From Gammaproteobacteria bacterium (lineage in GTDB: Bacteria > Pseudomonadota > Gammaproteobacteria > Eutrophobiales > Eutrophobiaceae), in contig CBDEUK010000002.1 in NCBI GenBank assembly GCA_965243205.1, positions 736,001-800,000 on the forward strand: 64,000 nucleotides of DNA. The letters are read 5' to 3'. This document shows positions 1 through 9,372 of the stretch, one piece after another (positions within the stretch are counted from its first letter, which is position 1; each line of letters opens with the position of its first letter). The position numbers and the translations under genes are program-made. Below the pieces are notes generated by a model that saw only the letters and a list, made by a program, of their open reading frames with translations, was not told where the DNA came from and did no database searches.

Positions 1-915
1 CATGCACCCATCACTTTACTTGCATCAAAGCTTGGCCATTGCTCACGGAATTTATCTTCATACTTCTTCAATAAATCAACCGTCGCATCATTGGCATAAG
101 TGATCTCGAAATCACGATTGATCATGATCACAGGGCTTTGAGCACCATCGATTGCAACCTGTAAACGTGCTGCTTCAAGTTCTTTCTTGCGAACATCGGT
201 CACGTCCTGCCATTCCAAGGTATTACCAATGTAATTACCGTCCAAATCAATTTGCGCAGAGACCGTTAACGCAAACTTCAATCCATTGATTTCAATATCA
301 GTTTGATACGGTAGGTTATTTGGATCACTTAATAACTTACGTTGATGTTCTGGATTCTTATGGAACATATCAATGCATGTTCCCATCACTTTGCTCGCAT
401 CAAAGCCTGGCCATTTTTCACGAAATTTATCTTCATACTTCTTCAATAAATCGACCGTCGCATCATTAGCATATGTGATCTCGAAATCACGATTGATCAT
501 GATCACAGGGCTTTGAGCACCATCGATTGCAACCTGTAAACGCGCTGCTTCAAGTTCTTTCTTGCGAAGATCAGTTACATCTTGCCACTCTAAGGTGTTA
601 CCAATGTAATTACCATCCAAATCAATTTGTGCAGAAACAGTTAATGAAAACTTCAATCCATTGATTTCAATGTCGGTTTGATACGGTAAATTATTTGGGT
701 CACTTAATAATTTACGTTGATGTTCTGGGTTTTTATGGAACATATCAATACAAACACCCATCACTTTACTCGCATCAAAGCTTGGCCATTGCTCACGGAA
801 TTTATCTTCATACTTTTTAAGTAATTCTATTGTTGATCCATTAGCATAAGTAATCTCGAAATCACGATTGATCATGATCATTGGGCTTTGAGCGCCATCG
901 ACTGATGCTTGTAAA
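1..915 (-). repeat. 375-nt (125-aa) near-identical tandem PAS-domain repeats, about 2.4 copies visible
   Basis: tacttcttcaataaat-type motif recurs at 61, 436 and 811; long identical stretches between copies. Confidence 0.95.
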
Positions 916-2615
916 CGAGAAGCTGCTAATTTCTCAGCGCGTAACTCTGTCCCATCGGTTGCATATTTGACGACTTTAAATGGCTTGCCATCCGAATCAA
1001 ACATTGGGTTATAACTGGCATTCAACCAAACCTCTTCGCCTTTTTTATTGAATCGTCGATACTGACCTGATTCAGCTTCGCCTGAAGCAAGACGATCCCA
1101 AAAATCTTTGTATTCAGCACTTTGAGCATATTCTGGATCAACAAACATACGATGATGCTTACCTTGAATTTCTTCTAAACTGTAACCAGTTGTGTCTAGA
1201 AAATTTTGATTTGCTATGATAATGGTTCCGTCAAGATTAAACTCAATGACTGCTTGAGCTTTACTAATTGCTTCGAGTTTGCCAGAAAAATCTGCATTTT
1301 CAGCTCTTAGCTTTTTAAGCTCTTGTTCCATTTCTTCGACATCACTGTTCTCAACGTTATTTACGTTTTCTTCGCTCATCGTATTTACCTCCGGTGGGTG
1401 TTCATATGCCTCGAGCATTATTTTTGAAACTTTAGTTAATGCTTGAGCCCAAGCATCGTGTATTTGATTCGTCCATGCTTCACCACAGATATCTTGAAGC
1501 ACATTAATTAATGATTCTCTAATTGCAGGGTAATGTGTTTCTACTGCCCCATAACTTTGATACAACTTTCCTAATTCTCGAATAACTTCTATAGAGTCTT
1601 GAGAATTTGGGTCAGATGTATTCACCATACCAACTACATCCATTAATTTTTGTTTTTTCCCTGTTACATAAACATCACCAAATAAATCTTTTAATTCGGG
1701 ATGTTTTTCAAATAAAACTTCATGAAATCGGTCTACTATAATTTCTTTTTGTGCCAATATTTTTTCAAATCCGTCTTCAAGTATTTCATCTTCCTTATCA
1801 TTGTCATTAACACTTGAATCCAAAGACCCTATTTCTGTTTCTACTTGTTCTTCTACTGATTCCATCTGCTCTTCTAGAGCTTCTATTTGTTGCTCATCTT
1901 CAACTGAACCTTCTTCATCCAATAATGGCTCCTCTATTTCAGGCTCATCATTTTGTTCTTCTACTGATTCCATCTGCTCTTCTAGAGCTTCTACTTGTTG
2001 CTCTTCTTCAGCTGCATCTTCTTCATTCAACAATGGCTCTTCTATTGCAGGCTCATCATTTTGTTCTTCTACTGATTCTGTCTGTTCTTCTAAAGCTTCT
2101 ATTTTTTGCTCTTCTTCTAGTGAATCTTCTTCATTCAACATCGACTCTTCTATTTCAGAGTTATCATCTTCAACAATATTGTTATTTTCGATAACTTCTT
2201 TTGATTCATCTTGATTCATCAATTCAATTAAATTGTCGAACGTTATTTTCCAAGCGTCATTAATAGAATCATCATAGTGATCACCCAATAATTCTTGTAT
2301 CGTTTGAAGAAATATCGATTTAATCGCTTGAGCGTGTTCGTTGGTGAATCTAAAGAATGAATATTTTTCCGATATGGACTGTAATTGTTCTTTTATAATA
2401 TCTTTATCACGAATATTCGATATGACTGTATCGATTAGGCCAATAAACTGATGGTTTCTTTCAGCGACATCCATTGTATAAAATATGGATTCGAACTCAG
2501 GATGTTGTTCATATAATTTACTAAATAACACAGACGACAAATCATCTAAGCCTTCTGAAATTATCATAAAGCTAGATTCTATGACATCAAGTTCTGTATT
2601 ATCTTCATTCCACAT
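1..2615 (-). CDS. Soluble Aer2-like chemoreceptor, N-terminal part (globin-like x2, acidic repeat linker, PAS_3, at least 3 Aer2-type heme-PAS); 3' end lies beyond the window
   Basis: Hand translation from ATG 2615 (GAGAG upstream) gives a continuous frame to the left edge: MWNEDNTELDVIESSF...LYEQHPEFESIF...AWK; second globin-like block FEKHPELKDLF...HYPAIRESL...AWAQA; QAVIEFNLDGTIIIANQNFL...WLNASYNPMFD (PAS_3); repeated DMFHKNPEHQRKLL...KFSLTV...NTLEWQDVT. Directly downstream of cheY-cheA-cheW. The MCP signalling domain is not visible in the window. Confidence 0.88.
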   Translation of the reverse strand, partial: MWNEDNTELDVIESSFMIISEGLDDLSSVLFSKLYEQHPEFESIFYTMDVAERNHQFIGLIDTVISNIRDKDIIKEQLQSISEKYSFFRFTNEHAQAIKSIFLQTIQELLGDHYDDSINDAWKITFDNLIELMNQDESKEVIENNNIVEDDNSEIEESMLNEEDSLEEEQKIEALEEQTESVEEQNDEPAIEEPLLNEEDAAEEEQQVEALEEQMESVEEQNDEPEIEEPLLDEEGSVEDEQQIEALEEQMESVEEQVETEIGSLDSSVNDNDKEDEILEDGFEKILAQKEIIVDRFHEVLFEKHPELKDLFGDVYVTGKKQKLMDVVGMVNTSDPNSQDSIEVIRELGKLYQSYGAVETHYPAIRESLINVLQDICGEAWTNQIHDAWAQALTKVSKIMLEAYEHPPEVNTMSEENVNNVENSDVEEMEQELKKLRAENADFSGKLEAISKAQAVIEFNLDGTIIIANQNFLDTTGYSLEEIQGKHHRMFVDPEYAQSAEYKDFWDRLASGEAESGQYRRFNKKGEEVWLNASYNPMFDSDGKPFKVVKYATDGTELRAEKLAASRLQASVDGAQSPMIMINRDFEITYANGSTIELLKKYEDKFREQWPSFDASKVMGVCIDMFHKNPEHQRKLLSDPNNLPYQTDIEINGLKFSLTVSAQIDLDGNYIGNTLEWQDVTDLRKKELEAARLQVAIDGAQSPVIMINRDFEITYANDATVDLLKKYEDKFREKWPGFDASKVMGTCIDMFHKNPEHQRKLLSDPNNLPYQTDIEINGLKFALTVSAQIDLDGNYIGNTLEWQDVTDVRKKELEAARLQVAIDGAQSPVIMINRDFEITYANDATVDLLKKYEDKFREQWPSFDASKVMGA
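1845..2160 (-). repeat. 108-nt (36-aa) Glu-rich tandem repeat x3 between the two globin-like domains
   Basis: ttgttcttctactgattc at 1845, 1953, 2061; encodes units like EPAIEEPLLNEEDAAEEEQQVEALEEQMESVEEQND. Confidence 0.93.
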
Positions 2616-2632: not shown

Positions 2633-3157
2633 TTAGTGTTCTAATTGTGAACCGATAACTTCAACATCTACCAGTTGATCGATGTCTAATAAGATCAACA
2701 TTTTTTCATCGACGGTTGCTAAACCTTTTATAAATTGAGTATCAATCGCACCGCCAAAATCTGGAGCATCTTTTAACTCATCGTTGCCAACGTTATAAAC
2801 TTCCGAAACTGCATCAACAACAAAACCCATTGTTCTTTCACCTTTATGTGAATGCACATTCAGAACCACAACCACTGTCATGTTGTTGTATTCTGCTTTT
2901 TCCATATTAAATCGAACTCGCAAATCAATAATTGGCACAATCGTGCCTCTTAAATTGATAACGCCTTGAATATATTCTGGCGTATTAGGTATTTCAGTTG
3001 CCGCATCCCAACCTTTTATTTCCTGGACTCGTAAAATATCCACACCATATTCTTCACCAGATAAAATAAATGTTAAAAATTGATTACCATCGCCATTCAT
3101 TTGTTCATCGATACTTATTTCATTAGACTGTTCTTGATTCATTGTTTCGAAAGTCAT
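2633..3157 (-). CDS. cheW: Chemotaxis coupling protein CheW
   Basis: QFLTFILSGEEYGVDILRVQEIKG...GVINLRGTIVPIIDLR; start moved from 3190 to ATG 3157, which has GAGGTG just upstream. Confidence 0.96.
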   Translation of the reverse strand: MTFETMNQEQSNEISIDEQMNGDGNQFLTFILSGEEYGVDILRVQEIKGWDAATEIPNTPEYIQGVINLRGTIVPIIDLRVRFNMEKAEYNNMTVVVVLNVHSHKGERTMGFVVDAVSEVYNVGNDELKDAPDFGGAIDTQFIKGLATVDEKMLILLDIDQLVDVEVIGSQLEH

Positions 3158-3164
3158 AGGCACC

Positions 3165-5234
3165 TCACGCGGCTTTAAATTCTGATTCAAATCGATTGTT
3201 AACTTGAGTACTTTTTTTGGTTAGATGCAATGTGCCTGCGATATCAAGTATCATTGCCACAGTGCCATCACCTAAAATTGTCGCTCCTGATATTCCATCT
3301 ACTCTTTGATAATTAGTTTCTAAACTTTTAATAACAACTTGTTGTTGCGATAATAAATCATCTACAAAAATTCCTGCTTTTTGTCCTTCAGACTCCACTA
3401 TTACTAATAGCCCATCTTCAAGGTCTGATGGATCTCCATTAAGATTAAATACCTCACGTAAACGAACAATCGGAATGTAATCTTCTCGAACTCTGTATAA
3501 TTCGCCTTTACCCGGAAGGATATTTAGATTTTTATTTTGTATCTGTATTGACTCAATAATTGAAACTAACGGTATGATATAAATTTGATTGGAAACTTTG
3601 ACCAATTGACCATCTAATATGGCTAACGTTAATGGCAAGCGAATTCTAAATGTACTTCCCTTTCCTTCCTCGGATTCAACTTCGACAATACCACCTAAGT
3701 CTTTAATGTTTCTTCTAACAACATCCATACCTACACCGCGTCCTGAAACATCACTGACTTCCTTAGCTGTAGAGAAACCCGGCATAAATATTAATTCATT
3801 AATTTTCTCATCTGGTACAACTTCATTTTCACCAACTAGTCCATTTTCTTTAGCTTTAGCAAGAATTCGTTCTTTATTTAATCCGGCACCATCATCATTA
3901 ATTTCTATAACGATATTCCCGCCTTCATGAAATGCATTTAAATGTAATAACCCAGTTTCTGGCTTACCAGCTTTCACCCGATCTTCAGGCATTTCAATTC
4001 CATGATCCAAAGAATTTCTAACTAAATGCACCAACGGATCACCAATTTTTTCCATGACGGTTTTATCTAACTCTGTTTGTTCACCTGAGAGTTTCAAATC
4101 AATTTTTTTATTGAGTTTATTGCTTAAATCTCTTACCAATCTAGGAAAGCGATTAAATGAGAAACTAATTGGCAACATACGAATTTGTAAAACATTTTCT
4201 TGTAGCTCTCTGGTATTCCTTTCTAACAAGGCCAATCCATCTTTTAATTTTTCTACGTCTAACTGTTCTGCATTTTCATCAGAACCAAATTGGCTGAGCA
4301 TAGACTGCGTTATAACCAACTCACCAACCATATTGATCAATGTATCGATTTTATCTATTCCAACACGAATAGACGTTGATTCAGAGCTTGATTTTTTTTC
4401 TTTTGCTGATGCTGCTGGAGTTTCAGGAGTTTTTTTATTCTGATTGGATTGAGTTACTGTGTCAGATTGATTTGAACTTTCAGTTTCTTTAGATTCAGCA
4501 TTAGTTGTGCCTTCATTTGATAGAATAGGGATAATTTCAAGTTCACAATCCCCATCAACCCATTCAAATATTTCAACAATTTTTTCTTTTTCAACATTAA
4601 CCTTTAATGTCATGTGCCAGGATAAATAACATGTCTCAAAATCAAATGACTCAAACGATGGTAATTTATCGTCATTGACTTCGACATCTAATTCACCTAA
4701 CTCGGATAATTCTTTAATTAACCTTAAAGGATCATTACCCGTTAAAAACATATTCTCAAACGGAATAAAATCGATTGTCCATCCTTCTATATTTTCTGAT
4801 GCAGCATCATTGTCTGATGAACCTTTAGAATCGGATGAACTATCATTATTGGATAACAATTCTTCTAATTTGGATTGCAATGATTGAGTCGCTTCAACAT
4901 CTAACTCATCTGAATCTCTAGTTGCAGTTAACATATTTCTCAATACATCAACAGATTGCAATAAGAGTTCAATAGCCTCTTTACTTACCATGCGATCGCC
5001 TGCGCGCATTTCATCTAGTAAAGTTTCTAATACATGAGTGAAGTTTGCTATCTCAGTAAAACCAAACGTACCGCTACCACCCTTTATGGAATGTGCGGCA
5101 CGAAAAATTGTATTGATTGTCTCAACGTCTGGCTCACCGACATTTAAATCCAATAAGCCAGTTTCCATATCATCAAGACCTTCAAAGCTTTCTTCGAAGA
5201 AAACCTCATGAAATTGCGACATATCTACTGACAT
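3165..5234 (-). CDS. cheA: Chemotaxis histidine kinase CheA
   Basis: Hpt IFRAAHSIKGGSG, HLVRNSLDHGIE, DDGAGL, SGRGVGMDVV, C-terminal CheW-like domain. Confidence 0.98.
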   Translation of the reverse strand: MSVDMSQFHEVFFEESFEGLDDMETGLLDLNVGEPDVETINTIFRAAHSIKGGSGTFGFTEIANFTHVLETLLDEMRAGDRMVSKEAIELLLQSVDVLRNMLTATRDSDELDVEATQSLQSKLEELLSNNDSSSDSKGSSDNDAASENIEGWTIDFIPFENMFLTGNDPLRLIKELSELGELDVEVNDDKLPSFESFDFETCYLSWHMTLKVNVEKEKIVEIFEWVDGDCELEIIPILSNEGTTNAESKETESSNQSDTVTQSNQNKKTPETPAASAKEKKSSSESTSIRVGIDKIDTLINMVGELVITQSMLSQFGSDENAEQLDVEKLKDGLALLERNTRELQENVLQIRMLPISFSFNRFPRLVRDLSNKLNKKIDLKLSGEQTELDKTVMEKIGDPLVHLVRNSLDHGIEMPEDRVKAGKPETGLLHLNAFHEGGNIVIEINDDGAGLNKERILAKAKENGLVGENEVVPDEKINELIFMPGFSTAKEVSDVSGRGVGMDVVRRNIKDLGGIVEVESEEGKGSTFRIRLPLTLAILDGQLVKVSNQIYIIPLVSIIESIQIQNKNLNILPGKGELYRVREDYIPIVRLREVFNLNGDPSDLEDGLLVIVESEGQKAGIFVDDLLSQQQVVIKSLETNYQRVDGISGATILGDGTVAMILDIAGTLHLTKKSTQVNNRFESEFKAA

Positions 5235-5285: not shown

Positions 5286-5648
5286 TTAACCCAATACCTT
5301 TTTAATGGTTGCGATTAATTGATCAGGGTTAAATGGTTTGACAAGCCAGCCTGTAGCACCTGCAGCCTTGCCTTGTGCTTTTTTATCACCCGCTGATTCT
5401 GTGGTTAACATCAGCATTGGTACATGTTTATAGTTAGGTAGCTTTCTTAATTCTTGTATTAATGTGATCCCATCCATAATCGGCATATTGACATCCGTTA
5501 ATACTAAATCTGGGCTGCTAGATTGAGCTTTAGTTAAAGCATCCTGACCATCATTTGCTTCGATCACATCATATCCAGCACCTTTTAAAGTAAAACTCAC
5601 CATTTGGCGCATTGATGCGGAATCATCTACGGCTAATACTGTTGCCAT
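5286..5648 (-). CDS. cheY: Chemotaxis response regulator CheY
   Basis: AVDDSASMR, LTDVNMP, LTTES, KPFNP; first gene of the che cluster. Confidence 0.96.
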   Translation of the reverse strand: MATVLAVDDSASMRQMVSFTLKGAGYDVIEANDGQDALTKAQSSSPDLVLTDVNMPIMDGITLIQELRKLPNYKHVPMLMLTTESAGDKKAQGKAAGATGWLVKPFNPDQLIATIKKVLG

Positions 5649-5949: not shown

Positions 5950-6600
5950 ATGAAAAATCCCTTAGTCAAAACCCTTTTTATAATCGTCATACTCATCGCT
6001 TTCAGCGCTGGTTTTGGCATTTATTCTTCGAGCTATTATCAAAATAAAGCCAATCAAACCGTATCCATCCCAGGTTTTCTTTGGCCGAATCCAAAGCAAT
6101 TAAGAGCATTTGAAACCATTAACCAAAACGGTGAAATATTTGGCTTAGATAATCTAATAGGCAATTGGTCTTTTTTATTTTTTGGTTTTACTCATTGCCC
6201 TGATGTATGTCCTATTAGTCTGGCTGTATTAAATGAAGTTGATTCCATCATCCAAAAAAACGGCGCTGATACACCAATACAAACAATATTCGTTACTGTC
6301 GATCCTGAACGAGATACAACGGAAGTTCTTAAGCAGTATATTGAATACTACAATAAAGACTTTATTGCGCTTGGAGGCAACAAAGAACAAGTTGATAGTA
6401 TCGCCCGACAAATTGGTGTTGCTTATGGAAAATCACAAATAGAATCTGATACAAAATATCAAGTCGACCACAGTGCTTCTATCTTTTTAGTCGACCCTAA
6501 AGGTCGCTTTGTTGGCGTTTTCTCTTCTCCACATGAAGTACAGCCTATTCTTGAACAATTTAATTCCATTCGAACTTATCTAGATAAACAATCTCAATGA
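5950..6600 (+). CDS. SCO1/SenC family copper chaperone
   Basis: FGFTHCPDVCP (CxxxC), TVDPERDT, VDHSASIFLVDP; N-terminal TM helix. Confidence 0.95.
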   Translation: MKNPLVKTLFIIVILIAFSAGFGIYSSSYYQNKANQTVSIPGFLWPNPKQLRAFETINQNGEIFGLDNLIGNWSFLFFGFTHCPDVCPISLAVLNEVDSIIQKNGADTPIQTIFVTVDPERDTTEVLKQYIEYYNKDFIALGGNKEQVDSIARQIGVAYGKSQIESDTKYQVDHSASIFLVDPKGRFVGVFSSPHEVQPILEQFNSIRTYLDKQSQ

Positions 6601-7058
6601 ATATAGTAAAAATAATCTCTGTTTATTTATTTTCTTTTTGTTTCTGTCAAAATGTATTCTGCGAATCCAAAATTTCCATAGAAGATTTATGGATCAATGA
6701 AGCGCCGCCTAATATGACAGTATTAGCAGCTTATGGGGCGATTCATAACAACACTGATTCTGATTTAATATTAGAAAAAATTGAAAGTTCTCAATTCGAA
6801 ACCATAGAAATTCATACAATAATCATCAAAGATGATATATCAAAAATGTTGAAGCAAGATAACTTCTCGGTAAAAAAAGGAGCCCATGCTAAATTTTCTC
6901 CAGGTGGTATGCACATCATGCTTTATGAGCCTAAAACGCCTGTAAAAAAAGGAGATAGTTTTGATTTTATCTTTTATTTTTCAGACGGCAGTCAAGTGCA
7001 AACCAAAGCCATTGTAAAAAAGCTATCTGAAACTTCTAATCACCATCATCATCATTAA
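6597..7058 (+). CDS. Periplasmic copper chaperone PCu(A)C
   Basis: Signal peptide, AAYG, EIHT..M..GGMHIML copper motif, His5 C-terminal tail; ATGA overlap with SCO gene. Confidence 0.9.
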   Translation: MNIVKIISVYLFSFCFCQNVFCESKISIEDLWINEAPPNMTVLAAYGAIHNNTDSDLILEKIESSQFETIEIHTIIIKDDISKMLKQDNFSVKKGAHAKFSPGGMHIMLYEPKTPVKKGDSFDFIFYFSDGSQVQTKAIVKKLSETSNHHHHH

Positions 7059-7075
7059 ACATAAACGTTGTTAAT

Positions 7076-7933
7076 ATGTTGCATTTGTTAAAAGTACTGC
7101 CTCAATATATCGTTCCTCAGCATGGTCTTACTAGCATTGTTTATCGTCTAACACGCATTCGTCAAAGAGCCATAAAAAATTTCTTAATACAGCGTTTCAC
7201 CAAACTGTTTTCTCTTGATCTCAATGATTATGTTCGTCAAAAACCTGAAGAATTTGATAGCTTTAATGACTTTTTTACTCGCGAATTAAAGCCGGATGCT
7301 CGTCCCAGAGATAATAGCGTCGATATTATTTCCCCTGTTGATGGTTTTGTAAGTGAATTCGGAATTATGCAAGAAAACCGCTTAATTCAAGCTAAAGGTA
7401 AAGATTATTCATTGCATGATCTTTTAGCTAATGAAAAAGAATTAATCAGTAAATATGAAAATGGCTTTTTCAGTACTTTATATTTATCACCTAGAAATTA
7501 TCACCGCATTCATATGCCTGATGATGGAATATTACGCAATGTTATCCATGTACCAGGAAAACTATTCGGTGTAGGAAAAAGCACGACAAATACTGTCAAT
7601 AATTTATTTGCTCGTAATGAAAGAGTGATTTTAGATTTTGATACCGAATACGGTTCAATGAGTTTGGTAATGATTGGCGCTATTTTTGTTGGCAGTATGG
7701 AAACAATATGGCAAGGACAGATCACGCCTTCAAAACAAAGACAAATTCAAAAATGGCAATCTGATTTAAATTCTGAAAACGCTCAACAAAAGATTGGAAA
7801 TGAAATCGCGCGTTTCAATATGGGTTCAACAGTTATTTTATTGTTTAGTAAAGATTCTATCAATTGGATTGATGACTTGAAGACAGGTATGCCAATTAAA
7901 ATGGGCCAAGGTTTGGCCAAATATAAAAATTAA
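7076..7933 (+). CDS. psd: Phosphatidylserine decarboxylase proenzyme
   Basis: SFNDFFTRELK, SPVDG, YLSPRNYHRIHMP, RFNMGST autocleavage motif. Confidence 0.96.
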   Translation: MLHLLKVLPQYIVPQHGLTSIVYRLTRIRQRAIKNFLIQRFTKLFSLDLNDYVRQKPEEFDSFNDFFTRELKPDARPRDNSVDIISPVDGFVSEFGIMQENRLIQAKGKDYSLHDLLANEKELISKYENGFFSTLYLSPRNYHRIHMPDDGILRNVIHVPGKLFGVGKSTTNTVNNLFARNERVILDFDTEYGSMSLVMIGAIFVGSMETIWQGQITPSKQRQIQKWQSDLNSENAQQKIGNEIARFNMGSTVILLFSKDSINWIDDLKTGMPIKMGQGLAKYKN

Positions 7934-9372
7934 CTTAATATTTTAATACATAAATTCATCAGCCCTGCTGGAAATAAACCTAAAAGTAATACTGATAACC
8001 CATTAATACTTAAGATGAAACGGAATGTTTGCGAAGCTTTTATCGCTGTTAAGTTTTGAGCTTCATCAAAATATATGAGTTTTATTACCCTTAAATAATA
8101 ATACGCACCAATAATTGAAAAGAATACAGTAATAACTGCTAACCAAACCAGATCTGCTTTTACCACATCGGATAAAACATAAACCTTAGCCCAAAACCCA
8201 AGAAATGGTGGCACACCAGCAAGTGAAGACATAAGTATTAACATGATAAAAGCAAACCAAGGGTTTCGTTGAACTAATCCTTGATAATCAGCCAACTCAT
8301 CAGCTTCAGCATCACGCCTACCTAATAAAATCACTATCCCAAATACTGCTAAACTCATAATCGAATAACTGATGACATAAAATAATGCATCAGAATATCC
8401 AGATGCATCAACAGAGGATGTATCGAAAGATAATAGACCCAATAATACAAACCCCATATGAGCTATCGTTGAATAAGCAAGCATTCTTTTTATATTCGTT
8501 TGTGCAATTGCAACGATATTGCCTAATGCAATCGATAAAATTGCAATCGTTATCAATATTGTTTGCCAATAATCAATTAAGTTTAAAAAACCGCCACCAA
8601 TAACTCTAAAAGCAATGGCAAATATTGCTAACTTAGATATTGTGCTTATAAACAAAACTACCGACGTTGGTGAACCTTGATAAACGTCAGGTACCCACAT
8701 ATGAAATGGTACTGTACCAAATTTAAACGCAAGCGCTGCAATGATAAAAACTAAAGCAAATCTCATTAAAACAGGGTCATATTGCTCTAGCTCAATCACA
8801 TTTTTGATTGCCTGAATATCAATGCTACCTGTTACACCATAGAGAATAGAGATACCATAGAGCAATAAACCAGAAGCGATTGCACCCATGATAAAATATT
8901 TCATAGCTGCTTCTGAAGCTGCAGAGGAATTTCTATGCATGGCTACCATTGCATATAAAGAAAGCGACATTAACTCCAAACCTAAATAAATCACTAATAG
9001 ATTTGCAGCAGAGGCAATAATCATAATGCCTAAAACACAAAATAGTCCTAAGACATAATATTCACCTCTTAACCAACCATGTTCAGATAAATAATTATCA
9101 GAATAATAAAAAATAATGATAGCGAGTAAACAAGTTATGATTTTAATAACTGAAGCAAGTTGATCGTGTATAAATAAACCATTAAAGAGATAGGATTCAT
9201 CCTCTGGAAAAACAAAAAATAATAAACATATAATTATAATAATAATAATTTCAGATAGATAGAATGTAGAATTTCTTTGTTTTTTAAAAAACGTATCAGC
9301 GATTAATAAAATACTGGCTAAGCACAGCAAACTTAATTCGGGCGATGATATTGCAAGCTCAGATAAAATCAT
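7930..9372 (-). CDS. nuoN: NADH-quinone oxidoreductase subunit N
   Basis: EAAMKYF, FKFGTVPFHMWVPDVYQG, KRMLAYS; last gene of the nuo operon. Confidence 0.97.
   Translation of the reverse strand: MILSELAISSPELSLLCLASILLIADTFFKKQRNSTFYLSEIIIIIIICLLFFVFPEDESYLFNGLFIHDQLASVIKIITCLLAIIIFYYSDNYLSEHGWLRGEYYVLGLFCVLGIMIIASAANLLVIYLGLELMSLSLYAMVAMHRNSSAASEAAMKYFIMGAIASGLLLYGISILYGVTGSIDIQAIKNVIELEQYDPVLMRFALVFIIAALAFKFGTVPFHMWVPDVYQGSPTSVVLFISTISKLAIFAIAFRVIGGGFLNLIDYWQTILITIAILSIALGNIVAIAQTNIKRMLAYSTIAHMGFVLLGLLSFDTSSVDASGYSDALFYVISYSIMSLAVFGIVILLGRRDAEADELADYQGLVQRNPWFAFIMLILMSSLAGVPPFLGFWAKVYVLSDVVKADLVWLAVITVFFSIIGAYYYLRVIKLIYFDEAQNLTAIKASQTFRFILSINGLSVLLLGLFPAGLMNLCIKILS

Follow-up and report, generated by a model that had tools for sequence, protein, structure and literature searches.

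A globin-bearing Aer2-family chemoreceptor gene with triplicated haem-PAS domains and tyrosine at the proximal position of both globin folds

When globin, PAS_3 and haem-PAS domains stand together in one chemoreceptor, which of them would report on oxygen? The question is raised by a gene at the left edge of a 64,000-nucleotide (nt) stretch of DNA (hereafter the window) from Gammaproteobacteria bacterium (GenBank assembly GCA_965243205.1, contig CBDEUK010000002.1; G000:C2:736001-800000), which a first-pass annotation had read as a multi-input gas/redox receptor combining three sensor folds. As that annotation proposed, the gene is one continuous frame directly after cheY-cheA-cheW. It runs from an ATG at 2615 to position 3 on the minus strand and is still open at its 3′ end when it leaves the window after 871 amino acids (aa); in the genome it is intact and encodes 1462 aa (G000:C2:734227-738615, equal to L004 12227..16615). 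We favour the reading that the product is a soluble, cytoplasmic Aer2-family O2 chemoreceptor that would feed its own CheA, CheW and CheY, encoded in an F7-type cluster, and that its two globin-fold domains lack the residue triad of haem-binding globins.

Domain architecture and the Aer2-type core

From the N to the C terminus the receptor consists of a globin domain, an acidic spacer of three 36-aa repeats, a second globin domain, a PAS_3 domain, four Aer2-type haem-PAS domains, a HAMP domain, the signalling domain of methyl-accepting chemotaxis proteins (MCPs; Pfam MCPsignal) and the pentapeptide EWEEF. Its parts, with the support for each from open reading frame (ORF) calls, family models, AlphaFold2 (AF2) models or alignment with solved structures, are the following.

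3..2615, minus strand: 5′ part (residues 1-871) of the Aer2-family chemoreceptor gene (ORF, Pfam, NCBIfam)
2223..2600, minus strand: globin-fold domain 1 (residues 6-131; Pfam, AF2/Foldseek)
1788..2222, minus strand: acidic spacer (residues 132-276), three 36-aa (108-bp) repeats (44% Asp+Glu, no Pfam family)
1401..1787, minus strand: globin-fold domain 2 (residues 277-405; PDB 3S1I, Pfam, AF2)
1257..1400, minus strand: acidic linker (residues 406-453), helix-like by eye (EEMEQELKKLRAEN), no family assigned by Pfam
951..1256, minus strand: PAS_3 domain (residues 454-555; Pfam PAS_3, 3EWK/8DIK)
576..950, minus strand: haem-PAS copy 1 (residues 556-680; His627, Leu658, Trp677, DVT; PDB alignment, motifs)
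201..575, minus strand: haem-PAS copy 2 (residues 681-805; His752, Leu783, Trp802; PDB alignment, motifs)
3..200, minus strand: haem-PAS copy 3, first 66 residues (806-871), its His877 motif lying beyond the window edge
G000:C2:734227-736000, minus strand: remainder of the receptor left of the window (end of haem-PAS3, haem-PAS4, HAMP, MCPsignal, EWEEF)

Pfam searches with the full protein placed Globin in two stretches (E 2.6e-12), PAS_3 at residues 466-551 (E 8.5e-19), PAS_8 in three stretches, HAMP_2 at 1091-1145 and MCPsignal at 1214-1370 (E 9.4e-56), and the C terminus reads DDEWEEF, a pentapeptide of the xWEEF type. Extension of the contig leftward thus brought to light the HAMP and MCP signalling domains, together with cheR, cheD and cheB, that the first-pass annotation had predicted to lie there. 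No transmembrane segment was detected anywhere in the receptor (highest 19-residue hydropathy 1.26), so that the protein classes as soluble and what had been noted for its visible part holds for the whole.

The PAS region carries the marks of Aer2. The motif FHK[ND]P[ES]HQR occurs at residues 626, 751, 876 and 1001; two of these motifs lie inside the window, from which the presence of at least three Aer2-type PAS domains had been correctly extrapolated. Three of the PAS units are arranged in tandem with a period of 375 bp (3.0 copies, 88% matches), and identity to the first copy at the protein level is 86% for copy 2, 87% for copy 3 and 41% for the fourth PAS domain. The annotation had assigned DMFHKNPEHQR, F[SA]LTV and LEW to each repeated PAS: the FHK motif recurs in all four domains and FSLTV or FALTV with LEW in the tandem three, and the fourth departs from the scheme with FSVNA and VEW. 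The H-beta position is accordingly Leu in the three tandem copies and Val in PAS4, as it also is in the last PAS domain of the orthologues. Across all four domains E121-W122-x-D124 is invariant and is followed by DVT or DIT, which supplies both the I-beta Trp and a DxT motif.

Comparison with solved structures pointed the same way and bore out the assignment of the repeated domains to the Aer2 type. A tandem copy matched 3VOL (Aerotaxis transducer Aer2, E 7.3e-22), 4HI4 (Aerotaxis transducer Aer2, E 5.8e-19) and 6CEQ (Methyl-accepting chemotaxis protein, E 1.8e-18). In 3VOL and 4HI4 the FHKNPxHQR His, the FSL Leu and the Trp-x-Asp-x-Thr residues all have aligned counterparts; in 6CEQ, whose chain stops before the Trp column, the His and Leu do. 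At the level of sequence the E-eta His, the predicted ligand of a b-type haem, is therefore present in all four domains. The receptor also passed the NCBIfam equivalog model NF041847, 'aerotaxis transducer Aer2', at 1248.4 bits (cut-off 1200), residues 696-1462 being colinear with positions 43-804 of the 804 positions of this Vibrio Aer2 profile.

The three tandem copies are under strong purifying selection, with ratios of non-synonymous to synonymous change (dN/dS) of 0.064-0.067 at dS values of 0.47-0.90. Since the copies differ mostly at synonymous sites, the triplication must be old and every copy maintained by selection.

The receptor shares with the Aer2 proteins of Vibrio vulnificus, Vibrio cholerae and Pseudomonas aeruginosa its solubility, PAS domains with E-eta His, I-beta Trp and DxT, a HAMP domain followed by the MCP module, the EWEEF-type tail and a gene position after cheY-cheA-cheW. 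Characterised Aer2 receptors have one PAS domain (P. aeruginosa), two (V. cholerae) or three (V. vulnificus and Leptospira) and, as far as they are described in the part of PMC10107281 available to us, no globin, which agrees with the first-pass annotation; the window receptor, at 1462 aa compared with about 800, has four haem-PAS domains, three of them a tandem triplication, and adds a PAS_3 domain, two N-terminal globin folds and an acidic repeat spacer.

By analogy with these receptors, oxygen sensing most likely proceeds through the haem-PAS domains. In Aer2 the haem is ligated by the E-eta His and bound O2 is stabilised by the I-beta Trp, and in V. vulnificus Aer2, whose C terminus is also EWEEF, the PAS domain nearest HAMP transmits the signal and the preceding one modulates it (PMC10107281, in the part available). 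In the window receptor O2 would bind b-type haem held by the E-eta histidines 627, 752, 877 and 1002 and be stabilised by the I-beta Trp; PAS4, the domain nearest HAMP, would relay the signal through DxT and HAMP to the kinase-control module, the haem-PAS copies upstream would modulate the PAS4 signal, and the EWEEF tail would recruit CheR for adaptation.

A gene that contains two sets of tandem repeats (375 bp and 108 bp, three copies each), inside which short-read contigs break, could in principle be a product of mis-assembly, or a dying gene with an untranslated N-terminal remnant; we consider this highly improbable. All 1462 codons are open, a Shine-Dalgarno-like GAGAG lies 7 nt 5′ of the ATG, 17 nt separate the cheW stop from the receptor start, and the start codon lines up with that of the orthologue from the same genus. 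Logan contigs (independent assemblies of four runs from one sample, possibly the source of the assembly itself) cover the entire gene with no differing letters, indels or joints, so that the stop or frameshift between the globin and PAS parts that would have undone the earlier proposal does not occur in them. A single 1089-bp contig bridges residues ~248-610, that is, the end of the spacer, globin 2, PAS_3 and the start of haem-PAS1. Contigs specific to each repeat copy match with 0 differences in the four runs, although no single contig spans all the repeats and their copy number has no independent check. Moreover, most differences between the repeat copies are at synonymous sites, a pattern that collapse or expansion during assembly would not yield. 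A look-up of RNA data sets listed none containing the gene, which speaks neither for nor against its expression.

The spacer (residues ~136-285) contains three copies of the 108-bp repeat, which are under weaker constraint than the haem-PAS copies (dN/dS 0.36-1.3). The most acidic 60-aa stretch of the receptor has an Asp+Glu fraction of 0.48, compared with at most 0.33 in the other family ORFs of more than 300 aa that were compared. Two plus-strand ORFs at 1801-2214 (137 aa) and 1814-2194 (126 aa) are Ser/Leu-rich antisense mirrors of this repeat and were rejected as genes.

The two globin folds and their pockets

The claim of two globin-like domains found support at the level of the fold in Pfam, PDB matches and structure prediction. 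Taken alone, globin 1 scored 31.3 bits and globin 2 28.1 bits with Pfam Globin (cut-off 22), that is, 28-31 bits here compared with 56-69 in relatives. The best PDB match of globin 2 was Hell's Gate globin I (3S1I, E 6.3e-15), followed by further matches that include HGbRL (3WFW, the third best), flavohaemoglobins and Vitreoscilla haemoglobin (E 6e-15 to 3e-8); globin 1 matched neuroglobin (E 8.5e-5). AF2 gave models with a mean predicted local distance difference test (pLDDT) score of 89.5 for globin 1 and 85.4 for globin 2, for which Foldseek returned 3S1I at template-modelling (TM) scores of 0.85/0.91 and 0.80/0.86, respectively. The models were built on alignments that contain canonical globins and therefore lean on them; with that proviso, both N-terminal domains are predicted to be 3-on-3 globin folds. 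Neither matched Protoglobin (PF11563) at E up to 0.01. With HemAT and other S-family globin-coupled sensors the receptor shares a globin fold upstream of an MCP signalling domain, but HemAT-type proteins join an S-family (protoglobin-like) globin directly to the output (PMC7475203 and PMC13401364, in the parts available), whereas here the globins are of the F type, some 800 residues of PAS domains precede the output and the proximal His is gone.

The pockets of both domains depart from those of haem-binding F-type globins. With helix labels that we assigned according to globin nomenclature, globin 1 has Phe31 at B10, Phe45 at CD1, Arg53 at E7 and Tyr85 at F8, and globin 2 has His297 at B10, Phe312 at CD1, Lys320 at E7 and Tyr352 at F8. 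The norm in the family is Tyr-B10, Phe-CD1, Gln-E7 and His-F8, found in 26 of the 28 globin instances in receptors retrieved with residues 275-700 of the window protein, and the two exceptions are the window protein's own domains. Both have thus kept Phe-CD1 and lost the proximal His as well as the Tyr-B10/Gln-E7 pair. MAFFT alignments gave the same assignments, and in the PDB alignments Tyr352 faces the proximal His of 3S1I, 3UBC and 3WFW; Hell's Gate globin I, Vitreoscilla haemoglobin and HGbRL, which resemble both window globins in fold (TM 0.80-0.91) and globin 2 also in sequence, have His where both window globins have Tyr.

In a wider HMMER alignment of 300 globin instances (all globin stretches of the 150 best representatives for globin 2 and of four orthologues), His occupies F8 in 285 cases and Tyr in 3, among them both window domains, and the remaining 12 have another residue or a gap there. 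The third Tyr-F8 instance, residues 171-299 of P0029, a 436-aa protein with two globin stretches, keeps Tyr-B10. Outside the pocket, globin 2 retains the F-type signature (YGA, HYP, AW and IMLEAYE); most of the family signature, including the YG and HY motifs, is gone from globin 1.

The change is concentrated in the globins. Identity to the orthologue from the same genus (genome G001) is 86% in the MCP domain, 81% in haem-PAS4, 70-72% in haem-PAS1-3, 71% in PAS_3, 68% in HAMP and 40% in globin 2, and globin 1 gives no meaningful alignment. In a tree of 84 globin domains, built by a quick method with SH-aLRT and carrying long-branch and deviant-composition warnings for both window domains, terminal branches measured 3.42 changes per site for globin 2 and 8-10 for globin 1, compared with a median of 0.21; globin 2 still fell within the group that includes the second globin of the same-genus orthologue, the placement of both long branches being unsure. 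Among 1.84 billion cluster representatives none exceeded 39% identity to globin 2; a metagenome scan with this domain yielded only three weak partial matches (29-47% identity over 38-62 residues) and no closer relative. A homologue search with residues 1-440, whose search words the acidic repeats are suspected of dominating, returned nothing among 7993 scored candidates. Elsewhere in the same genome (L012 1492-2280; G000:C2 ~1.668 Mb, minus strand) a canonical 135-aa single-domain globin with Tyr-B10, Gln-E7 and His-F8 is encoded directly 3′ of a 125-aa CxxCH protein, possibly as a globin/cytochrome c pair.

Loss of Tyr-B10, Gln-E7 and His-F8 together with accelerated divergence argues that the two domains no longer act as O2-binding haem domains, and most likely neither is an ordinary O2-binding haem globin any more, as judged from their pocket residues. 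They would derive from the haem globins with which receptors of this subfamily begin, and have probably been retained as N-terminal modules of structural or modulatory use, haem-PAS1 meanwhile undergoing triplication.

These residues also bear on the original proposal that two working O2/NO/CO haem globins, a flavin-binding PAS_3 and the Aer2 haem-PAS domains all sense in one receptor. All three folds are present, and relatives' globins keep the Tyr/Gln/His pocket, so that the proposal is plausible for the wider subfamily, but it presumes working haem globins, and in the window receptor both have Tyr for His-F8 and neither has Tyr-B10 or Gln-E7. For the PAS_3 domain the closest solved relatives are PAS domains of a sensor protein and an aerotaxis receptor, 3EWK (E 1.9e-12) and 8DIK (E 7.2e-12), which we take to be MmoS and Escherichia coli Aer, respectively, both presumably FAD-binding. 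We did not adopt flavin adenine dinucleotide (FAD) as a cofactor here, as the Asn of the 3EWK and 8DIK PAS domains, a residue that we take to contact the flavin, aligns in these matches at E 1e-12 with Arg in the receptor's PAS_3. For this protein the multi-input proposal is therefore very unlikely.

Several observations weigh against the reading that we favour, that is, oxygen sensing by the haem-PAS core, with globins that most likely no longer bind O2 in the usual manner. PAS4, which would transmit the signal, carries Val in place of the H-beta Leu of characterised Aer2 domains. Both globins pass Pfam and give confident models and hence have not simply decayed; the same His-to-Tyr change in both could reflect selection, and His-B10, Lys-E7 and Tyr-F8 of globin 2 could mark a change of function rather than a loss. 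In addition, neither the homologue nor the metagenome searches found a close relative in the Tyr-F8 state.

The globins might instead have acquired a new function, binding haem through Tyr-F8 in a ferric state like that of haemoglobin M (Hb M) or catalase, taking His297 or Lys320 as sixth ligand, or holding a non-haem ligand in the manner of RsbR; the Aer2 core would then receive from them an additional, non-O2 input (redox state, sulfide, NO, peroxide or a lipid). Such a function fits the identical change in both domains, the exchange of B10 and F8 residues in globin 2 (Tyr/His to His/Tyr) with Lys at E7 and with Phe-CD1, HYP and the IMLEAYE helix kept, and the confident prediction of both folds. 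His, Lys and Tyr can all serve as haem-iron ligands, and a Tyr at F8 locks the haem ferric in human Hb M variants, Tyr being a ligand also in haem proteins such as catalase. Many carriers of the family, moreover, bear names that we take to be those of sulfur-oxidiser lineages. There are precedents among non-haem globins (RsbR, phycocyanin and photoglobin), whose proximal position is re-used for other ligands (PMC8717448, in the part available), and in HGbRL, the third-best PDB match, a relative that is itself Lys-His hexacoordinate (PMC4476040, likewise). However, globin 1 lacks nearly all family signatures and cannot be placed on the tree, as if under relaxed constraint, and non-His residues at F8 (L, F, N, M, Q, Y) occur sporadically in other proteins of the 300-instance alignment, most of which have at least two globin stretches, so that inert globin copies seem to be tolerated. 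We regard a new globin function as possible but unlikely.

Its most specific form is doubtful further still: globin 2, and perhaps globin 1, would be a natural Hb M-like sensor of redox state or of ferric-haem ligands (sulfide, NO) set atop four O2-sensing PAS-haem domains, with ferric haem on Tyr-F8 and the sixth position closed by His-B10 or Lys-E7. If haem is still bound by the Tyr-F8 domains, these would to our knowledge be the first globins with a natural proximal Tyr reported from a signalling protein.

The chemosensory cluster and its possible output

The genes around the receptor from which its partners and output can be read, all on the minus strand, are the following.

2633-3190, minus strand: cheW (185 aa; Pfam CheW E 1e-36)
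3165-5234, minus strand: cheA (689 aa; Hpt, dimerisation, HATPase and CheW-like domains by Pfam; NCBIfam CheA E 6e-197, below the model cut-off)
5286-5648, minus strand: cheY (120 aa, receiver; Pfam Response_reg E 4e-28)
L004 10464-12201 = G000:C2:732464-734201, minus strand: ParA/MinD-type ATPase (251 aa), STAS protein (128 aa) and 185-aa protein
L004 4517-6232, minus strand: 571-aa protein with Response_reg, SpoIIE (PP2C) and HATPase_c_2 domains (Pfam), last of the cluster

On the same strand, cheY-cheA-cheW lie directly upstream of the receptor; downstream follow, in this order, the ParA/MinD-type ATPase, the STAS protein, the 185-aa protein, cheR, cheD, cheB, a 434-aa second MCP and the 571-aa protein. 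The 185-aa protein between the receptor and cheR stayed below every Pfam and NCBIfam threshold, and the ATPase may serve to position a cytoplasmic array. The same order, including the trio of ParA-like, STAS and 185-aa genes, recurs in the same-genus genome G001.

By gene content this is an F7-type cluster (cheY-cheA-cheW-aer2 ... cheR-cheD-cheB plus a second MCP) with three genes inserted. The annotation had matched its gene order to that of the P. aeruginosa Che2 cluster, whose CheR2 binds the receptor's pentapeptide. The F7-type match holds, but the ParA-like, STAS and 185-aa genes and the CrsR-like regulator are extra and bring the cluster closer to che1 of Shewanella oneidensis. The latter consists of CrsR, CrsA, six che genes and a pair of MCPs that includes the soluble Aer2so (PMC9855816, in the part available). 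Judged by gene content only, the two clusters share CheA, CheY, CheW, CheR, CheD and CheB, a soluble Aer2 with a second short MCP, a receiver-PP2C-anti-sigma-kinase protein and a STAS protein; the window cluster differs in adding the ParA-like ATPase and the 185-aa protein of no family, and its receptor differs from Aer2so, for which no globin is reported ('globin' has 0 occurrences in the available part of PMC9855816).

CrsR and HsbR are receiver-phosphatase-kinase/anti-sigma proteins that control RpoS together with a STAS antagonist (PMC6482189, in the part available). The 571-aa protein has the domain order described for them, and is likened to them by that order alone, and RpoS itself is encoded in the genome (453 bits, cut-off 378.7), so that candidate genes for a CrsR/CrsA-type switch are all present. 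The receiver-PP2C-anti-sigma-kinase and STAS genes, which Shewanella che1 also contains, make an RpoS partner switch a possible output, again by gene content only. The genome encodes two more CheA-type kinases (matches at G000:C2:189036-189200 and G000:C1:245805-245984), one in a 1393-aa open frame and the other, of 687 aa, about 2 kb from a FliA-like sigma match; the latter probably belongs to the flagellar pathway. With further kinases at hand, one of them near a FliA-like sigma factor, the window cluster need not steer the flagellum, and by analogy with Shewanella we see an even chance that its pathway controls an RpoS partner switch, either in place of swimming or in addition to it. Were the Hb M-like interpretation of the globins true, a single cytoplasmic receptor would sense the oxidant side as well as the reductant side of an oxic-sulfidic interface and relay the result to that switch.

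Upstream of cheY, window positions 5950-9372 hold three plus-strand ORFs (216, 153 and 285 aa), the second of which ends in five His, and, after these, a very hydrophobic 480-aa minus-strand ORF. All three plus-strand ORFs also flank the cluster in G001, whereas in G018 only the first and third were seen beside it.

Globin-bearing Aer2 receptors in other genomes

The first-pass annotation did not recognise this combination of sensor folds as described. A full-text literature search, whose coverage excludes most subscription journals, found no paper describing a globin fused to an Aer2 receptor. Aer2 with its PAS-haem domains and the globin-coupled receptors of the HemAT type form separate classes in a 2026 aerotaxis review (PMC13401364), and a 2020 globin review places MCP-coupled globins in the S family, with F-family members as flavohaemoglobins or single domains (PMC7475203; both in the parts available). 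The combination itself is widespread: when a single genome of each species was scanned with aligned receptor-linked globins, 60 of 78 loci (57 of them complete) encode a globin, at least one Aer2 motif and an MCP core in one ORF, with one to four haem-PAS domains and one to four globins each. The globin-Aer2-MCP combination is thus frequent in sequence data and undescribed in the searchable literature. The same scan gave Tyr-B10/Phe-CD1/Gln-E7/His-F8 in 83 of 84 domains, a count that we set aside as evidence because the scan patterns themselves contained RFYE and H..YGA.

The same-genus orthologue (L014 8398-12060, 1220 aa) has the order globin-globin-PAS_3-PAS_3-two haem-PAS-HAMP-MCP-DDEWEEF, that is, two PAS_3 and two haem-PAS domains where the window receptor has one and four. 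A receptor from a genome of the same family has one globin, one haem-PAS, HAMP domains and an MCP core (787 aa), and one from another family of the same class has a globin, three haem-PAS domains, HAMP and an MCP core (943 aa). An Aer2 motif is present in 20 of the 150 best representatives for globin 2, and 9 of these 20 have an MCP core as well. Four Aer2 motifs occur in P0124, P0182, P0186, P0192, P0261 and L019, and no protein examined has more; P0217 (1855 aa) combines two such motifs with seven canonical F-type globins.

With these uncharacterised receptors (the same-genus orthologue, P0186, P0217 and L019) the window receptor shares one or more F-type globins, one to four haem-PAS domains, HAMP, MCP and an xWEEF end, whereas all the others examined keep Tyr-B10, Phe-CD1, Gln-E7 and His-F8. 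Its two Tyr-F8 globins, acidic spacer and triplicated haem-PAS make it, on the sequences compared, singular within the globin-bearing Aer2 branch. Aer2 is the model for PAS-haem gas sensing, and no studied example contains anything beyond one to three PAS domains; the large unstudied branch with F-type globins (up to seven per protein) ahead of one to four Aer2 haem-PAS domains offers a natural system for how two different haem sensors combine in one receptor. In this branch the window receptor would stand as a natural 'knock-out', its globin pocket triads lost and its first haem-PAS triplicated, and comparison with the same-genus orthologue, which has two canonical globins, is a ready-made experiment on what the globin contributes.

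Judged by record titles, uncultured Gammaproteobacteria make up nearly all of the carriers and other phyla supply a few. The gammaproteobacterial names are Thiohalobacter, Ectothiorhodospiraceae, Chromatiales, Sulfuriflexus, Thioalkalispiraceae and Woeseiaceae; many carriers bear names that we take to be those of sulfur-oxidiser lineages, and one family protein is labelled 'hydrothermal vent metagenome'. Globin and Aer2-type haem-PAS domains also occur together without an MCP core in P0012, P0050, P0060, P0062, P0090, P0134 and L058, so that the pair is apparently joined to other output domains as well. Long tandem arrays of canonical F-type globins occur in P0003 (2461 aa, 14 matched globin stretches) and L069 (four), and multi-globin signalling proteins from bacteria as large as these seem to be undescribed in the literature examined.

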